A DNA stretch of 64,000 nt from Alphaproteobacteria bacterium (GTDB taxonomy: Bacteria; Pseudomonadota; Alphaproteobacteria; CAAHEQ01; UBA3637), in NCBI GenBank assembly GCA_045611705.1, contig JAZKXR010000007.1, positions 248,662 to 312,661 of the forward strand, given 5' to 3'. The notes under the pieces are model-generated. The model was not told where the DNA came from. It saw only the letters and a program-made list of their open reading frames with translations, and ran no database searches. Shown one piece after another: positions 10,121-55,014 of the stretch; the first letter of the stretch is position 1, and each line of letters starts with the position of its first letter. The position numbers were made by a program, and so were the translations under genes.

Positions 10121-11319
10121 TTGAAAAATCCTATTGCTTTTTGAAGGGCTGAAATAAATGCATCCACATCCTGTTTATCATTATATAAACCAAGGGATAC
10201 GCGAATACTAGCACTGTTACCGAAGAATTGATGTATCGGCATTGCACAGTGATGACCAATACGAACACAAACATTTTGTTTGGCCAAAATCATACTGATA
10301 TCATTGGGATGAATGTCTTTTATATTAAAGGATACCAAACCAAGTTTTAAATCCGGATTTCCTAAAAATTGAATATCTTTAATCTCTTTTAAGCATTGAA
10401 TCAGATAATCAAAGACTTGTTTTTCCTGTTTTTGAATTTCATCCATCGTGATGTTTTGAATAAACTCTATGGCAGATTTCAAACCTATTGCTTCTGCAAT
10501 AGGCGGTGTACCCGCCTCTAATCTGGCTGGCAAATCAGCAAAGGTTGTTTTATCGGGATAAACCTCCTTTATCATATCCCCGCCAAATTGATACGGCGGA
10601 AAAACGTCCAATGCTTCCTTAACACCATATAACACACCAATTCCGGTCGGACCGTAAATTTTATGACCGGAAAATACAAAATAATCACAATTCATATCTT
10701 TCACATCCGTTTGGATATGACAGATACTTTGTGCACCATCAACCAAAACCTTTGCACCAACCTGATGGGATAATTTGATAACTTCCTTTACAGGATTAAT
10801 AACACCCAAAACGTTGGACATAGCCGATATGGCCACAATTTTGGTATTCTTATTTAACTTGGCTTTAAAATCATCTAAATCCCAGGAACCATCTTTTTTT
10901 ACATTAAAAATACAAAACTTTGCCCCTGTTTTTAAACAAGCTTGCTGCCAAGGAACAAAATTGGCATGGTGTTCAGCAACAGATACCAACACCTCATCAT
11001 TTGGCTTTAACAGTTGTTCATAACCTGACGCAACAATATTGATTGCCTCAGTTGCTCCTTTCGTGAAAACAATTTCCTTTTCATCTGCCTCAATAAATTC
11101 AGCAATCTTTTTTCGGGATGATTCATACATTCTTGTTGCACGATTGGCCAATTCACAGCTCCCACGATGAACATTTGAATAATCCTTTAAATAAAAATTA
11201 GATAACGCCTCAACAACCATTTTTGGTTTTTGTGCAGATGCGGCTGAATCCAAATAAATTAAAGAATTATCAAAAATCGGAAAATCTTTTTTAAACATTT
11301 TCATCCATCCATTTTTCAA
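10117..11319 (-). CDS. sufS: Cysteine desulfurase SufS
   Basis: 400 aa class-V aminotransferase with the PLP-Lys region FSGHKIYGPTGIGVLY and a catalytic Cys region (RIGHHCAMP). Confidence 0.9.
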   Translation of the reverse strand: MKNGWMKMFKKDFPIFDNSLIYLDSAASAQKPKMVVEALSNFYLKDYSNVHRGSCELANRATRMYESSRKKIAEFIEADEKEIVFTKGATEAINIVASGYEQLLKPNDEVLVSVAEHHANFVPWQQACLKTGAKFCIFNVKKDGSWDLDDFKAKLNKNTKIVAISAMSNVLGVINPVKEVIKLSHQVGAKVLVDGAQSICHIQTDVKDMNCDYFVFSGHKIYGPTGIGVLYGVKEALDVFPPYQFGGDMIKEVYPDKTTFADLPARLEAGTPPIAEAIGLKSAIEFIQNITMDEIQKQEKQVFDYLIQCLKEIKDIQFLGNPDLKLGLVSFNIKDIHPNDISMILAKQNVCVRIGHHCAMPIHQFFGNSASIRVSLGLYNDKQDVDAFISALQKAIGFFK

Positions 11320-49580: not shown

Positions 49581-50474
49581 ATGGAAAAAAACACAACAAA
49601 AGAAGAACAAATAGACCAAGTAATGGCCAAAAAAGATATCAGTAAGGAAGAAGCGCAAAAAGAGGTTGCCCAAAAAGGGATTGAAGAAATTACAGGTAAA
49701 ACAGCGAATCAAGCTTCCCAAGAAACGCGTGAAATTTTGGAAGTTTATGATGCATTGGAATCTCAAAATTCAAATGAAATAAATAAGGAAAAACAAGATA
49801 CTGATTTAAAAACGGTCAAAGAGTTTCAAGAAAAAATTGATAAAAATCCAACACTTGCAGACGATTTGGTAAAAGCAGGACTCGGATCCGAACAATTGAA
49901 CATAACTGCCGAAAAATTAGAAAATCGTATTGATAAAGTGGCCCAAGAAATGGATATCCACGGCGAAGCAAATTCAGAACAAAAAGAGGAAAATTCACAA
50001 AATATTGAAAAATCAGAACAAGAATTTTCTAATCAAGAGAATAATTCTGATGATCTTTTGCCTCCACCTATTCTCCCACAGGATCAAAATAATCAATCAG
50101 AAAATGAAAATACATCCCCACAAGAAGATCAAAATAATCAATCAGAAAATGAAAATACATCCCCTCAAGAAGATCAAAATAATACCCAAGATAATAAAAG
50201 TCAAAATAAACAAAACAATATAACAAATATTTTGATGGAAGCGTCTAAAAATGGTGCAAAATTAACACTTGATGCCATAAAAGAAGGACAAAAGCTTTCA
50301 ACAACTGTTGCAAACGCCTCGGGTGAAGTTGTCGGAACCGTTGCCCAAAAAGGCACGGAAAAAGTTTTGGGTAATGGCATTATTGGAAAAACAGGCGGAA
50401 AAATCGCAAAAGACCTCTCCTCAAAAGCTGTTTCCTCATTTATTAAAGCCCAAATAGGTAATTTGGGGAAATAG
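49581..50474 (+). CDS. Acidic, low-complexity protein with 42-bp tandem repeats (QNNQSENENTSPQED x2.3)
   Basis: 297 aa, very E/K/Q/N-rich. DNA tandem repeat at about 50080-50190. Confidence 0.5.
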   Translation: MEKNTTKEEQIDQVMAKKDISKEEAQKEVAQKGIEEITGKTANQASQETREILEVYDALESQNSNEINKEKQDTDLKTVKEFQEKIDKNPTLADDLVKAGLGSEQLNITAEKLENRIDKVAQEMDIHGEANSEQKEENSQNIEKSEQEFSNQENNSDDLLPPPILPQDQNNQSENENTSPQEDQNNQSENENTSPQEDQNNTQDNKSQNKQNNITNILMEASKNGAKLTLDAIKEGQKLSTTVANASGEVVGTVAQKGTEKVLGNGIIGKTGGKIAKDLSSKAVSSFIKAQIGNLGK

Positions 50475-50477
50475 TTT

Positions 50478-50918
50478 TCAAATAATATCCAAAATTTTCT
50501 TTTTGTGTTTTTGGGCGTATTGAACAGCCCGATAAGCGCCACCGATTTTATCGCAAATATAACAAACGATACAATCTGTGTTATCCACCACCCATTGATT
50601 GCGTTTGACAATACTGGCACGCTTTGGGGCTTTTTCAATTTCAACAGGCATAATAAAATCCGTAAAATCACATTTCATATATTGCAATTCATTCGGATAA
50701 CAAAGAACCGCAACAACTTGAATTTTTGGATAAATTCTTTTTAAATCACAGGCAATTTTTGAACACAGAATATCAAATTCCCCATGATTTCCAACATAAA
50801 AAACATCCACCCCCTGATGAATTAAATCAATGATAACAGAACGTAAAATTTTGGCAATCTGTTCAGATTTTCCAAACAAATTGGCATGACCGAAAAAAGC
50901 GCATTTTTTGCCCATCAT
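50478..50918 (-). CDS. YpsA-family SLOG-domain protein (DUF1273)
   Basis: 146 aa collinear with Bacillus YpsA: FFGHANLFG...VFYVGNHGEFDILCSKIACDLKRIYPKIQVVAVLCYPNE...KRNQWVVDNTDCIVCY (compare ITGYKPFELG...[37 protein letters not shown]...QKNQWFIDKSDGLLLLY). Confidence 0.75.
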   Translation of the reverse strand: MMGKKCAFFGHANLFGKSEQIAKILRSVIIDLIHQGVDVFYVGNHGEFDILCSKIACDLKRIYPKIQVVAVLCYPNELQYMKCDFTDFIMPVEIEKAPKRASIVKRNQWVVDNTDCIVCYICDKIGGAYRAVQYAQKHKKKILDII

Positions 50919-50940
50919 CCACCCCTTTTTTTTGTTCTAT

Positions 50941-51170
50941 TTAACAATTCGCCCACCTTATTCAGGTGGGTGGATGTTAGTAACTATAGGTCGTTAGAAG
51001 AATAGTCCTGCCTTATTGGGGTGGATACCTTATTCGGCAGGCATCCACCCATGAACTATACGCATCTTCGGCATATCCAAGGCGGATGCCGACAGAATTT
51101 TCTTCTGCCCTAACAACCTATCAGACTACTAAATCCTAGCTTGAGGGGCATTTCACCCAAGCAAATGTAT
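50941..51170. ncRNA. GC-rich, ORF-free structured intergenic block. Candidate structured RNA (leader of the YpsA-like gene or independent ncRNA), strand unresolved.
   Basis: Hairpin CCCACC-TTATTC-AGGTGGG. Interleaved pairings CCTGCC(51008)/GGCAGG(51036) and GGTGGAT(51021)/ATCCACC(51043) give a pseudoknot-like topology. Further hairpin at 51065-51095. The TTATTC loop motif recurs. Confidence 0.3.
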
Positions 51171-51220
51171 TATAAAGAAAAAATTTTCAAAAGGCAATTA
51201 AAAAAATTAAATCTAAAACC

Positions 51221-51245
51221 TTATAGCAAAAAACCGCCCTTACGG
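51221..51245 (-). terminator. Rho-independent terminator after the TIM-barrel gene
   Basis: Minus strand reads GCCGTCCGTAAGGGCGG followed by TTTTTTGC. Confidence 0.6.
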
Positions 51246-51298
51246 ACGGCTTAAAAAAATGGTGAGGGGTATCTTGCCCAACGCGAGCCAACCAAAGA

Positions 51299-52060
51299 TT
51301 ATTTTGCGTTCTTTTTTAAAAATTCTATGGCATCCTCTGCAGCAACTGTTGCTGACTCAACAGCTAAAATTGCTTTTGGACAATGTTGTTTGACCAATTT
51401 TATCACTTTTTTAAAATCAATTGTCCCATCATCAAAACCATTATGCTCATCATTATTCGTGCGATTCAATTTTCCATGATTGTTATGCAAATGCATATAA
51501 CCAATACGTTTATTTAACGTTTTAATCCAATCATAAACAGACATATCGGAATTACCATGGGCATGCCCAACATCAAGACAAACCTTTAAACGCTTATCAT
51601 TAACAGCATCAATTTCTTGTATCATAACAGAGCTGTCCAATTCCAACATATTCTCAATCATTATTGTAATGGAATCATCTTTATCGGCAAAAAATTCTTC
51701 CCAAAAAGTTTTAGCTCTTTTAACCCAGTTAGGAATATGTGAAGTAAAGGGAACATATCCGTCATGAACAACAATACTATCACAACCTAATTCTTTTGCG
51801 ATTTTATAAGCGTAATTAAACCATTTCATTGTCTCTTTGCGAATACTTGGCATCGCTGAACCCAAATTTAAATCCCAAAAAGGTGCATGAAGTGATTTGT
51901 GCTTAATGTTTTTTGTTTGCTCTTTTTGATATGCAATTTGCTTTTTTACATTTTTCAAAAGTGGATCGGCAAATAACTGCAACTCTATCCCAATCTTTTG
52001 ACGTTTTACAATCTCAAAAGCTGGTTCGAATTTTCCATGATCGCATAATCTTATGTCCAT
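51299..52060 (-). CDS. Xylose-isomerase-like TIM-barrel protein (sugar phosphate isomerase/epimerase; endonuclease IV-related fold)
   Basis: 253 aa with metal-ligand blocks VVHDGY, CLDVGHAHGN, MHLHNNHG and DEHNGFDDGTIDF. Confidence 0.65.
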   Translation of the reverse strand: MDIRLCDHGKFEPAFEIVKRQKIGIELQLFADPLLKNVKKQIAYQKEQTKNIKHKSLHAPFWDLNLGSAMPSIRKETMKWFNYAYKIAKELGCDSIVVHDGYVPFTSHIPNWVKRAKTFWEEFFADKDDSITIMIENMLELDSSVMIQEIDAVNDKRLKVCLDVGHAHGNSDMSVYDWIKTLNKRIGYMHLHNNHGKLNRTNNDEHNGFDDGTIDFKKVIKLVKQHCPKAILAVESATVAAEDAIEFLKKNAK

Positions 52061-52290
52061 CGTTATGACCTCCCTTTTTGTATTTTGCTATTGTACAGAA
52101 TTGTTTTGTAAAACGCAATGATTTTTTTGTTTTAATATCTCCAAAAGTTCGAATGTTTCAGAGGCTGTCAAAAAGCGTTAAAAATATGAAATGCAATAAA
52201 ATCAAGCGCTTTTGAGATAATGAGTTCGATTGCCCGCGAAAATAGGTGCTTTTTGTGTTGAGTCCAATCAAACCAGCTTAAATGCTTGTA

Positions 52291-52318
52291 AATAAAAGAA
52301 AAAGTCGCCTTTTCAGAC
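52291..52318 (-). terminator. Rho-independent terminator after the small membrane-protein gene
   Basis: Minus strand reads GTCGTCTGAAAAGGCGAC followed by TTTTTC. The terminator is immediately preceded by AATACCCCTCACCA. Confidence 0.6.
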
Positions 52319-52367
52319 GACTTAAAAAAATGGTGAGGGGTATTTTGCAAAACGAGGGCTAATATTG

Positions 52368-52619
52368 CTATTTCTGAAGTTCCATTTGTTTGTTCTTCAT
52401 TAATGCGGGAGAAATCTGTTCTTGTTTGGCAATTTGCTTTTTATGATTTTTTAAATGATTAGATGCATATACACACCCACCTGCAACGGCAGATATACAG
52501 ATTCCTAAAATCATAATTCCCATCAATGTTTCCCAAGTATCGGTTTTAGCATCTTTAGAATCGGCCATTTTCATAACCTCTTTAATTTGTTCTGGTGTCA
52601 AATGTTCTTTTATATCCAT
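52368..52619 (-). CDS. Small membrane protein (~83 aa), hypothetical
   Basis: Start MDIKEHLTPEQ at about 52619 with RBS AAAGGAGAAAAG. One TM helix (LMGIMILGICISAVAGGCVYA). The longer ORF-track form (to 52814) has no RBS. Confidence 0.5.
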   Translation of the reverse strand: MDIKEHLTPEQIKEVMKMADSKDAKTDTWETLMGIMILGICISAVAGGCVYASNHLKNHKKQIAKQEQISPALMKNKQMELQK

Positions 52620-52834
52620 AACTTTTCTCCTTTTTATAGCGCAAAATATATCATATTTATGGATACTTGTAAAGTTTTTATGAAATAAGATTAGTCTTTT
52701 CAATTTATCCCTTATTCCTCGGGGCCGCCTGAAAAGGCGTCTACTCGGCAAGGCCTTGTATCGAACATGGGTTCGTCCACCTCGGCACCCGCTATTTACA
52801 AAAAAACGCCCCAAACAGGGCGCTTTTTATAAAA

Positions 52835-52910
52835 TGGTGAGCGCGGAGGGATTCGAACCCTCGGCCACCTGATTAAAAGTCAGGTGCTCTACCAGCTGAG
52901 CTACGCACTC
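52835..52910 (-). tRNA. tRNA-Lys (anticodon TTT)
   Basis: Reverse complement GAGTGCGTAGCTCAGCTGGTAGAGCACCTGACTTTTAATCAGGTGGCCGAGGGTTCGAATCCCTCCGCGCTCACCA. Cloverleaf with anticodon loop CTTTTAA and encoded CCA, followed by hairpin terminator GCGCCCTGTTTGGGGCGTTTTTTT. Confidence 0.9.
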
Positions 52911-52968
52911 AATAGGGAGTATTATACGATATGTATTTTAGAATGTCAATCATTTTTTTATATTTTTT

Positions 52969-55014
52969 TTATTTTTCTTTAATTTCTTCAAAAACAAGTA
53001 CACTCCAAGCCGGAATTTTGGCTTTTTTATCGTCCATTTCAATCGGTTCTAATGTGCTGTTTAACACCAATTCCCAATGAAAGCCTTTTTTGTTTTTAGG
53101 TAATTGCCATTCAATATCCGCCTGATACGCATTAAAAACAAAGAACAAATCTCCCTGTTTTTGGCGAATACAATACGACAAGCTGCGTACATAATAGGCC
53201 CAATCCATATCTGACATCAATTTGCCATCCGGTTTATACCATATCAGTTTTTCCTTTTTGAAAAAGTCATAGTATGACATTATCGGATGATTACGACGAA
53301 ATGCCATCAGCTGACGCACGAAAGCCAACATCTTTTGGCCCGATTCAGAAACATCTGACCAATCAATCCAAGAGGTTTTATTATCCTGAGCATATAAATT
53401 GTTATTTCCCTGATGTGATTGCATTATTTCATCACCAGCACAAAGCATGGGCGTCCCAAAGGATAGCAACAAAGACGCCATCATAGAACGAGCCCGTCTA
53501 TCACGATTTAACAAAACATCAGGATTGTCTGTATCCCCTTCCTGACCGCTGTTCCATGAAAAATTCGCATTTGAACCATCACGATTATCTTCTTGATTTT
53601 TTTCGTTATGCTTATTATTATAACTGACCAAATCCGCCAAAGAAAACCCATCGTGTGCTGTGATAAAATTGATTGATTCCCATGGTTTGCGACCGTTTTG
53701 TTGATATAAATCAGCCGAACCGGTCATCCGTTGGGCAAAATCACCAGCCATTCCCTCATCTCCACGCCAAAAACGACGAACGGTATCACGAAACTTATCA
53801 TTCCATTCAGCCCAACCGGGTCTGAATTTACCAACTTGATATCCGCCATTACCCAAATCCCAAGGCTCGGCAATCAATTTTAAGCGTTGTAATACGGGAT
53901 CTTGTTGGACAACACCCAAAAAATCGCCATTACGAGTAAAAGTGTTATCATCGTCACGGGCTAAAGTGGTCGCTAAATCAAAGCGAAAACCATCAATCTG
54001 CATATTTTCCGCCCAATAACGCAACGAATCCATAACCAACTGCAAAACCCTTGGATGTCCTAAATTAAAGCTGGCCCCACAACCGGTTGTATCTTCATAA
54101 TAACGTGGATTTTGTGGGTTTGTACGATAGTAAACCGTATTATCAATCCCACGATAGCACAAAGTCGGACCTAATTGATTGCCTTCGGCCGTATGATTAA
54201 AAACAACATCCAAAATAACCTCAATCCCTGCTTCATGCAAAGTACGAATAGCGTTTTTTAATTCCGAAGTACTGCCATTATACATATAAGGTGCATAAGG
54301 ACACATAAACAAAACGGGATCATATCCCCAATAGTTGGTCAACCCCTTTTGGGCCAAATGCCCCGGAGTCATAAAAGTAGCAATTGGTAATAATTCCACA
54401 GCCGAAATTTGCAAAGATTTTAAATACTGTATAATCTTGGGATGTGTCAATCCTTTAAATGTACCACGAAATGCTTTATCAATTTCGGGATTCAATGCTG
54501 TAAATCCCTTTAAATGCGTTTCATAGATAACCTCTTCGTCCCAATTATGTCGTGGTTTTTGCGAATTACCCCATTGAAAATAAGTATCATCCAAAACAAC
54601 GCACTTGGGAACATAATCCGCATCATCCTTTTTCGAAAAAGACAAATCTAATTTTGAAGATCTGAGATTATACCCTAATTGAGAATTGTGTGCTTTGATA
54701 GGACCTGTTAATTTTTTTGCATAAGGGTCTAACAACAACTTATTCGGATTAAAACGAAACCCCTTTTCCGGTTCATAAGGACCATGAACACGATAAGCGT
54801 ACCTTTGTCCCCAGCGCAAGCCTTTTATATAACCGTGCCAAACTTCATCAGTATAACGGGGCAAATCGATTCGTTTTTCGTTTTTGCCGTCTGCATCAAA
54901 TAAACACAATTGAACCCGAGTAGCATTTTTGGAAAACAATGCGAAATTCACACCATTTCCATCATAATTTGCCCCCAGTGGATACGGTAAGCCCGGTAAA
55001 ACTTCTAAATTCAT
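52969..55014 (-). CDS. glgX: Glycogen debranching enzyme GlgX
   Basis: 681 aa GH13 with a CBM48 N-terminus, GlgX-type blocks (YWGYDP, GFRFDLA, EPWD) and catalytic D/E/D residues. Confidence 0.9.
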   Translation of the reverse strand: MNLEVLPGLPYPLGANYDGNGVNFALFSKNATRVQLCLFDADGKNEKRIDLPRYTDEVWHGYIKGLRWGQRYAYRVHGPYEPEKGFRFNPNKLLLDPYAKKLTGPIKAHNSQLGYNLRSSKLDLSFSKKDDADYVPKCVVLDDTYFQWGNSQKPRHNWDEEVIYETHLKGFTALNPEIDKAFRGTFKGLTHPKIIQYLKSLQISAVELLPIATFMTPGHLAQKGLTNYWGYDPVLFMCPYAPYMYNGSTSELKNAIRTLHEAGIEVILDVVFNHTAEGNQLGPTLCYRGIDNTVYYRTNPQNPRYYEDTTGCGASFNLGHPRVLQLVMDSLRYWAENMQIDGFRFDLATTLARDDDNTFTRNGDFLGVVQQDPVLQRLKLIAEPWDLGNGGYQVGKFRPGWAEWNDKFRDTVRRFWRGDEGMAGDFAQRMTGSADLYQQNGRKPWESINFITAHDGFSLADLVSYNNKHNEKNQEDNRDGSNANFSWNSGQEGDTDNPDVLLNRDRRARSMMASLLLSFGTPMLCAGDEIMQSHQGNNNLYAQDNKTSWIDWSDVSESGQKMLAFVRQLMAFRRNHPIMSYYDFFKKEKLIWYKPDGKLMSDMDWAYYVRSLSYCIRQKQGDLFFVFNAYQADIEWQLPKNKKGFHWELVLNSTLEPIEMDDKKAKIPAWSVLVFEEIKEK

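Follow-up and report, generated by a model that had tools for sequence, protein, structure and literature searches.

Two members of an integrase-less mini-cassette family stacked behind a tRNA-Lys gene of an uncultured alphaproteobacterium

The window analysed here, a 64-kb stretch of DNA from an Alphaproteobacteria bacterium (contig JAZKXR010000007.1), contains a tRNA-Lys(UUU) gene followed by two small gene units and a gene encoding a YpsA-like SLOG protein. Two mini-cassettes without an integrase lie at this locus, both belonging to a family that had not been noticed before; one carries a gene for a small membrane protein and the other a TIM-barrel gene. The locus represents a variant of the known accretion of elements at tRNA sites with integron-like features. 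An uncultured, low-GC clade of gut and rumen Alphaproteobacteria has a recombination hot spot at the 3' end of tRNA-Lys(UUU). We regard it as fairly probable that the locus is an array of cassettes without an integrase of their own, mobilised in trans at a tRNA attachment site.

Insertion at the 3' end of tRNA-Lys

A count of the 11-mer CTCACCATTTT, the core of the repeat, revealed three copies in the 64 kb, all on the minus strand and all at this locus, compared to 0.06 expected; none of 100 shuffled sequences reached three. Behind each of them lies a terminator hairpin. The first-pass annotation was right that a motif with a new hairpin recurs twice beyond tRNA-Lys (the motif AATACCCCTCACCA, located by us as CCCCTCACCA at 52331-52340 and 51260-51269), and that each distal repeat closes a one-gene unit, first the small membrane protein and then the TIM barrel.

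Comparison with relatives, all represented by metagenome-assembled genome (MAG) or metagenome contigs, uncovered an empty site. The 153-kb contig L001 (MAG GCA_045631185.1) has the same glgX–tRNA-Lys–YpsA–polA context and encodes a protein 87% identical to the YpsA-like one, its nearest homologue. Its tRNA ends in ...CGCGCTCACCA and continues at once with TTTTTTTAAGCCGTCCGAAAGGGCGGTTTTTTGCTATAAGG, which is the sequence behind core copy 3 of the window. Global alignment of the two loci gave a single gap of 1575 bp, from window position 52841->51267, with flanks 92-97% identical. As 1575 is the sum of the two core-to-core distances (504 and 1071 bp), the small-ORF and TIM-barrel units (ORF, open reading frame) constitute the insertion relative to L001, with the joint in the core; the alternative polarity is a precise loss in L001. 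The first-pass annotation had expected 50478-52830 to vary in presence. This held for 51267-52841, which is missing in L001, and failed for the YpsA-like gene, which is present at the empty site. Judged by this alignment, the ancestral part of the locus comprises the YpsA-like gene with its leader and the "third" terminator. The features are as follows.

52969 (end), minus: glgX, upstream neighbour of tRNA-Lys
52921-52949, minus: tRNA-Lys promoter, TTGACA-17-TATAAT, 12/12 matches
52835-52910, minus: tRNA-Lys(UUU) gene with encoded CCA, 77.7 bits, the attachment target
52831-52841, minus: core copy 1 (CTCACCATTTT) at the left joint of the insertion, made up of the final 7 nt of the tRNA and TTTT
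52327-52830, minus: cassette 1, 504 bp core to core
52800-52830, minus: cassette 1 terminator hairpin directly behind the tRNA CCA, stem 52807-52822
52696-52798, minus: module II, GC-rich conserved element of ~100 nt
52645-52673, minus: promoter-like site of the small ORF, TTTACA-17-TATATT, TG in front
52368-52619, minus: cargo 1, 83-aa ORF, single predicted transmembrane (TM) helix, no Pfam family
52331-52359, minus: arm copy A, GCCCTCGTTTTGCAAAATACCC plus CTCACCA
52327-52337, minus: core copy 2
51256-52326, minus: cassette 2, 1071 bp core to core
52302-52323, minus: cassette 2 terminator hairpin AAGTCGTCTGAAAAGGCGACTT, which also opens most module-I cassettes of other genomes
52137-52301, minus: module I, non-coding conserved left end of the cassette, ~165 nt in the window (13-junction alignment)
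51299-52060, minus: cargo 2, 253-aa AP_endonuc_2 / xylose-isomerase-like TIM barrel, PF01261, E 6e-22
51260-51288, minus: arm copy B, GCTCGCGTTGGGCAAGATACCC plus CTCACCA
51256-51266, minus: core copy 3, right joint of the insertion
51231-51252, minus: ancestral terminator of tRNA-Lys, directly adjoining the tRNA CCA end in L001
51169-51197, minus: promoter-like site for the leader and YpsA-like gene, TTGCCT-17-TATAAT
50919-51165, minus: structured 5' leader RNA of the YpsA-like gene
50478-50918, minus: YpsA-like SLOG protein, 146 aa, outside the insertion

The gene order is thus glgX, tRNA-Lys, cassette 1, cassette 2, leader, YpsA-like gene, a 297-aa repeat protein and polA. Cassette 1 is composed of terminator, module II, promoter, small ORF, arm and core, and cassette 2 of terminator, module I, promoter, TIM-barrel gene, arm and core. 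The terminator hairpin of cassette 1 was also called on the plus strand; its T run marks the minus strand. Module I contains TTAAGCTGGTTTGATTGGACTCAA (52258-52281), a stem GGTTYGATTG/CAATCGAAC, and ...CATTCGAACTTTT. A 60-aa ORF across the junction (52168-52350) was judged to be non-coding: it spans the terminator hairpin, and conservation is at the DNA level in all frames.

The same tRNA-Lys/YpsA/polA site harbors other cargo in relatives, namely in L013, L006 and L007 (91-aa and 255-aa ORFs) and in L015 (239-aa and 259-aa ORFs). These inserts all end in ..GCAAGATACCCCTCACCA, comprising arm and core, and then run into the ancestral terminator; four occupancy states are found at this one chromosomal site. 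As in tRNA islands, the insert of the window lies at the 3' end of the tRNA, a direct repeat marks its far border (7 nt of tRNA sequence) and the empty site breaks within the repeat, whereas two further hallmarks of such islands, an integrase beside the att site and an atypical base composition, were not found. The tRNA-Lys itself is intact, the insert beginning after or within its last 7 nt.

The first-pass annotation had taken the repeats for three copies of the tRNA 3' end, which did not survive inspection. Common to all three is just 7 nt of tRNA sequence (CTCACCA), or 11 nt with the T run. The two distal core copies belong to direct repeats of 64 nt (51228-51291 and 52299-52362) with 81% identity and an exact match over 23 nt. 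These repeats take in the terminator hairpin, the two stems being separated by compensatory changes. To the left of CTCACCA the distal copies read ..GCAARATACCC, which is unlike the T-arm or acceptor of the tRNA and is not tRNA-derived. We also considered the arm as a tRNA fragment or minihelix and rejected it, because by inspection it offers no T-arm or acceptor pairing and has nothing but GTTCG and CTCACCA in common with the tRNA. As far as the aligned copies tell, the conserved repeat is a 29-nt cassette arm (TAGCTCGCGTTCGGCAAGATACC) followed by a 10-11-nt core, and not a reiterated tRNA 3' end. The proposal of site-specific integration at the tRNA therefore stands in part: it is supported by the core-bounded indel against L001 and the other cargo in relatives, but not by reiterated tRNA ends.

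The motif might alternatively be a common terminator or intergenic repeat unrelated to mobility. The AAGTCGTC...GGCGACTT hairpin is indeed also present behind other tRNAs, such as tRNA-Met in L010 and L011, and is therefore in itself a generic type of tRNA terminator. However, arm plus core occurs only twice in the window, both times at this locus. No islet like the one at tRNA-Lys, nor anything similar to the motif, was found behind the tRNA-Arg of the window. Moreover, the presence/absence polymorphism is bounded by the core, which largely refutes this explanation and leaves it very little probability.

The cassette family and recombination at the core

The arm pattern GCAANNTANCCCTCACCATTTT was scanned against one genome per GTDB species and against a metagenome collection as well. 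The genome scan yielded 10 loci, nine of which belong to gut or rumen MAGs labelled "Alphaproteobacteria bacterium" or Pseudomonadota, the tenth being a chance match; the metagenome scan added one further convincing arm locus. We thus have 18 arm copies, all distinct in sequence, at 11 loci in about nine MAGs of uncultured Alphaproteobacteria, with the consensus TAGCTCgCGtTcgGCAAGaTAtCC followed by the core. In six loci, a same-strand tRNA-Lys(UUU) gene is located 0.7-2.5 kb upstream, with neighbours on its own upstream side that differ among genomes. The same array grammar recurs in these genomes, with up to three cassettes in tandem per locus. Core-to-core lengths of the units range from 169 to 1468 bp. 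Apart from L013, with two genes, no unit has more than one gene, which can lie on either strand. Promoters and terminators of the cassettes sit in the expected places. The cargo spans seven different Pfam families and includes a tryptophanyl-tRNA synthetase (TrpRS) paralogue, NUDIX, hexapeptide transferase, S51 peptidase, RHH, MORN and TIM-barrel proteins, in addition to proteins of unknown family. At least 18 uniformly tiny units with shared end modules are hard to reconcile with the "decayed islets" of the first-pass annotation. In these MAGs, arm plus core provides a practical marker for strain-variable accessory genes.

Some members of the family deserve separate description. Two positions of the arm covary (..AAGATACCC in nine copies, ..AAGGTATCC in six, with three exceptions), which could reflect two sub-families or a constraint on the recognition site. 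The cargo of one L014 cassette (4039-5034) is unusual for a mobile unit, namely a complete class I aminoacyl-tRNA synthetase of the TrpRS-like kind (PF00579, E 5e-68), and the end of this array adjoins a tRNA-Tyr and a TyrRS-like gene. In one MAG, arm and core are followed by the same RHH_4-gene unit on two contigs (L017, 1282-1700; L018, 3085-3480). Neither contig shows a complete tRNA-Lys gene in view, L018 having just a ~15-nt remnant of its 3' end upstream of the S51 cassette, and arrays or copies may thus exist at a distance from tRNA-Lys.

To the right of the core stands module I, module II or the native flank. Module I of the family consists of a long terminator hairpin (GAACAAGTCGTCTGAAAAGGCGACTTGTTC) and ~200 nt of conserved non-coding sequence, whereas module II has a different terminator and the GC-rich element seen at 52798->52696. 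Copies of module II follow the core in L020 (6123-6233 and 6292-6396), L021 (two copies, one at 6726-6842) and L022 (5531-5647); one of those in L020 is a gene-less 169-bp unit ending in 19 nt of the tRNA-Lys 3' end. Single-sequence folds of module II are multi-hairpin and cloverleaf-like, and the six-sequence consensus fold is weak, with nine pairs and one compensatory change. The element may act as an sRNA, as a recombination arm or in some other way. Neither module II nor the junction matched Rfam (E <= 10 in window 50300-53100; E <= 0.1 in five related loci), and a gathering-threshold Rfam scan of the whole window returned two tRNAs only.

Left and right partners recombine freely at the core. 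Every pairing of a left partner (tRNA, partial tRNA or arm) with a right partner (module I, module II or native flank) occurs, as recombination at the core predicts. In addition, cassette 1 and an L020 cassette are 65-95% identical from core to core and fall to background outside; a homologue of cargo 1 is the cargo of one L020 cassette.

We infer that a site-specific recombinase encoded elsewhere mobilises the cassettes in trans, because they carry none themselves. The units are joined through the 10-11-nt core CTCACCATTT(T), corresponding to the last 7 nt of the tRNA and the start of its trailer. The enzyme acting in trans would recombine at the core, with arm, core and left module serving as an attP-like site and the tRNA end with its core as attB. 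Each integration would rebuild the tRNA end, put the terminator of the cassette behind the tRNA and displace older units outward. The tRNA should stay functional, since each event restores its last nucleotides and supplies a fresh terminator, and outward displacement would account for the original tRNA terminator now lying 1.6 kb off, in front of the YpsA-like gene. The arm and the T-loop-to-CCA segment of the tRNA share, besides CTCACCA, a GTTCG 11-12 nt upstream of the core (at -16 or -17; in the T-loop on the tRNA side), so that one enzyme could read both sites.

A more ambitious version, possible but in our estimate doubtful, is that the clade possesses a previously undescribed integron-like system of gene capture, with one chromosomal recombinase, encoded away from the array, that inserts, excises and shuffles the cassettes in trans. 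Its primary attachment site would be the tRNA-Lys 3' end, perhaps along with other tRNAs, and promoter-bearing single-gene cassettes would carry a dedicated site composed of the 29-nt arm, the 10-nt core and the left module.

Several observations weigh against a trans-mobilised array. The identity with the tRNA, at 7 nt or 11 nt if the T run is counted, is shorter than a classical tRNA att site would have. Our search for a recombinase was negative, and the trans-mobilisation is what we infer: none was seen among the cassette ORFs, those of the window encoding only the 83-aa TM protein and the TIM barrel, and a Pfam search, which is not an exhaustive six-frame search for fragments, detected no integrase or resolvase domain among the 30 window ORFs, which have ordinary housekeeping domains or none. 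The first-pass statement that no integrase remains is thereby supported. The GC content is not atypical (0.32-0.40 inside the region, 0.30-0.43 in neighbouring genes), so the cassettes give no signal of foreign DNA by this measure. The junction was found neither in IMG/VR viral contigs, where pattern scans gave chance coding matches only, nor by BLAST in GenBank phages or PLSDB plasmids. Nor did we observe any cassette in circular or excised form. Arm copies in L017 and L018 have no complete tRNA-Lys in view, only the remnant of the tRNA 3' end in L018. Repeats in MAG and metagenome contigs can also be mis-assembled, although independent assemblies agree here. Finally, left modules of ~200 nt and arms of ~30 nt are long enough to recombine without a dedicated enzyme.

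This last point belongs to the main rival, ordinary homologous recombination, which we consider unlikely. The junction, consisting of arm, core, terminator and module I or II (>200 nt), would act as portable homology through which DNA from relatives replaces, adds or deletes units, with no need for a dedicated recombinase. The same model of homologous exchange has been proposed for the minimal mobile elements of Neisseria. It is in line with the length of the junction modules and their 70-95% conservation across cassettes with unrelated cargo, and with the missing recombinase and unremarkable GC described above. The TIM-barrel gene also fits, as it has other flanking repeats in L046 (98% identical) and is apparently native and linked to valS in L047 (85%). 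By contrast, the indel between the window and L001 is bounded exactly by the 11-nt core, on both sides of which the flanks are dissimilar (the left one being tRNA or arm, the right one module II or native terminator). The precise re-assortment of left and right partners at the core and the 169-bp unit with a partial tRNA end in L020 likewise speak against homologous exchange.

Another explanation is that the units are decayed stumps of larger integrase-bearing islands or prophages, which entered successively at tRNA-Lys, decayed in the manner of cis-mobilisable elements (CIMEs) and then accreted. Such decay followed by tandem accretion is well documented at tRNA genes, including tRNA-Lys (PMC5704250; 10.1101/2020.12.28.424599). 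The first unit of L015 fits exactly, with a 24-26-nt tRNA-Lys repeat and TGTGATGC repeats at both ends, and partial tRNA-Lys ends are present in L018 and L020. However, the 18 arm-bounded units are all 0.2-1.5 kb long with at most one gene (two in L013), have kept promoter and terminator intact, share one set of conserved end modules, and show no integrase fragments. Given this uniformity, independent decay is an improbable source, and the units look like a cassette family rather than independent wrecks; we give this explanation a low probability. No larger arm-bounded parent was detected in the genome, metagenome and viral scans or by plasmid and phage BLAST, the other genomes being seen in 8-kb views.

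The tRNA-proximal unit of L015 (726-1905) is of the classical type, flanked by the tRNA-Lys 3'-end repeat. It contains no integrase, and the TGTGATGC arm-like repeats near its two ends may be arm-type sites of an integrase.

Homologues of the TIM-barrel protein (70-98% identity) were found in several genomic settings. In L037 (~9660-11000) one lies behind tRNA-Leu with an ~18-nt repeat of the end of that tRNA (TTCTTCGGGGCACCAGAT), and in L040 (~9850-11000) another lies between ~75-nt direct repeats ending in the last 6 nt of tRNA-fMet; both are one-gene inserts at other tRNAs, 70-80% identical to the TIM barrel here. Mini-inserts at tRNA 3' ends may therefore be general in the clade. The copy of L046 is situated between other junction-like repeats on a 1.2-kb contig, and that of L047 is apparently fixed directly after valS. 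Many of the closest relatives are on contigs of ~1.0-1.6 kb, about the size of one cassette, which would fit assemblies breaking at variable junctions, although the median of the collection is ~1 kb anyway.

The YpsA-like gene and its leader RNA

The YpsA-like protein scores 26.1 bits against Pfam family PF06908, below the gathering cut-off of 27.7. The YpsA family is matched by 17 of 21 homologues at E <= 0.01 (best 5.7e-8), and a profile finds Bacillus subtilis YpsA (2NX2) at E 0.004. Structural similarity search with the AlphaFold2 model (pLDDT 93.8) using Foldseek returned 2NX2 as the top hit (E 3.4e-9, TM score 0.79), followed by ShosA, DprA and LOG. In the homologous loop (HGEFD), G46 is invariant and D49 nearly so; the register differs from the nucleotide-binding GxE motif of B. 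subtilis. According to the predicted structure, we are dealing with a short, divergent YpsA-like SLOG protein. It shares the SLOG Rossmannoid fold with B. subtilis YpsA (PF06908), whose structure is the closest to the predicted model, but has 146 residues compared to 181 and no gpsB neighbour. The Firmicutes clade of "YpsA proper" is characterized by synteny with gpsB, and other branches occur in varied contexts including conflict systems (PMC6459960).

The first-pass annotation had called the gene Firmicute-type. Its 26 nearest homologues (53-87% identity) come from MAG or metagenome contigs; the single labelled one and all those whose context was examined are alphaproteobacterial, and the first Clostridia-labelled match appears at 28%. 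A recent Firmicute origin of the gene hence seems unlikely. The family is confined to MAG and metagenome contigs of the gut and rumen alphaproteobacterial clade, where it occurs on mobile backgrounds such as a prophage and a resolvase island. Its neighbours are tRNA-Lys and polA in the window, and a prophage, tuf (it follows tuf in L010) or a resolvase elsewhere. The gene is not part of the insertion and is a separate module travelling with its own leader.

Two of these settings were inspected more closely. In L002-L005 (~7300-10600), the gene and its leader reside in a prophage, in a region running from tail genes (DUF1833, NlpC/P60, GpJ-like, HU) to a reverse transcriptase (RVT_1, 349 aa); this may be the neighbourhood of a diversity-generating retroelement. 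In L043 (3605-6462), a 61% identical copy lies ~1.5 kb from a gene for a Resolvase-family serine recombinase and a tRNA gene.

A GC-rich leader of ~250 nt always accompanies the YpsA-like gene, even across unrelated genomic contexts (L001 7744-8009, L002 7743-8009, L043 5744-6009, L010 5776-6009). It sits between the promoter (51197->51169) and the Shine-Dalgarno (SD) sequence. An alignment of eight sequences gave a consensus structure of 74 pairs with 93.8% of cells paired. Covariation is pronounced: 23 pairs changed on both sides, compared to 9.1±2.2 in column shuffles (0/500 reaching this number) and 2-6 with slid partners. The leader of the window folds at -97 kcal/mol, with a minimum free energy z of -5.3. 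In the predicted consensus, the SD/AUG region (AGGGGUGGAUGAUG) is paired with an upstream UGCCCCU in helix 2; in a predicted alternative, AGGGGUGGAUGAUG would pair with CAUCCACCC, in competition with GGGUGGAUG. The leader had no Rfam 15 match at E <= 10 (window 50300-53100) or E <= 0.1 (L002, L010 and L043), and its pattern was not found in IMG/VR. From the modelled pairing, the leader probably controls translation by sequestering the ribosome-binding site. Its predicted layout is typical of translational riboswitches, making it a candidate new cis-regulatory RNA of narrow distribution. Should it prove to be an orphan riboswitch in front of the mobile YpsA-like SLOG gene, knowing the ligand could show what is sensed by this family of nucleotide-binding proteins.

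Convergent with the YpsA-like gene is a gene for a 297-aa low-complexity protein (49581-50474, plus strand) with 45-nt tandem repeats at 50082-50216, of which two copies are 98% identical and the third 62%. The protein varies in relatives, with lengths of 259 aa (L001) and 286 aa (L006), and is absent from L013 and L015, in which the YpsA-like gene abuts polA.

Comparison with known systems

Islands at tRNA genes are normally large and encode their own integrase, whereas the present locus is at the opposite extreme, with one-gene units of 0.2-1.5 kb and standardised ends. CIMEs are flanked by att sites, have lost their integration and transfer genes and accrete in tandem at the tRNA-proximal site (PMC5704250). 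Here too, core copies flank both units and genes for recombination or transfer are missing; similar to CIMEs of the ICESt1/ICESt3 type and to the streptococcal tandems of integrative and mobilisable or conjugative elements (IMEs and ICEs) at tRNA-Lys, the units have att-like repeats at a tRNA 3' end and are stacked in tandem. However, CIMEs are remnants of ICEs or IMEs on the kilobase scale and have individual histories, whereas the small, mostly one-gene units described here share the dedicated 29-nt arm and the left modules across genomes and have no known parental ICE or IME.

The tycheposons of Prochlorococcus carry cargo of up to 10 kbp or more, a size like that of phage-inducible chromosomal islands (10-20 kbp), together with a recombinase of the tyrosine or large serine type and, in many cases, replication genes (10.1101/2020.12.28.424599). 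They resemble the present locus in being tRNA-targeted tandem elements with adaptive cargo in streamlined genomes. The two differ in that tycheposons are separated by partial tRNA copies, whereas our units are separated by a non-tRNA arm and possess neither a recombinase nor a replication module. The ssrA and tRNA islands of Dehalococcoides reportedly integrated time and again into the 3' terminus of a single small-RNA gene, along with short direct repeats of that end, and are said to be large and to encode their own recombinase.

Compared to integron arrays and clusters of attC sites lacking integron-integrases (CALINs), the family is similar in its small, mostly single-gene cassettes that lack a recombinase of their own, in its conserved end site and diverse cargo, and in the entry of new units at the proximal site. 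We tried to read the junction as an integron attC site and rejected it: in 18 junctions no R''/R' or GTTRRRY/RYYYAAC pair was recognized, and the sole palindrome is a perfect terminator hairpin with a T run. Unlike in integrons, the array of the window is headed by tRNA-Lys with glgX upstream, and the window contains no IntI, attI or Pc. A tRNA 3' end serves here as the primary site, the cassettes have promoters and terminators of their own, and the cargo lies on either strand. If a trans-acting recombinase indeed moves these cassettes, they would represent a second, independent invention of the integron principle and a compact natural example of site-specific gene stacking.

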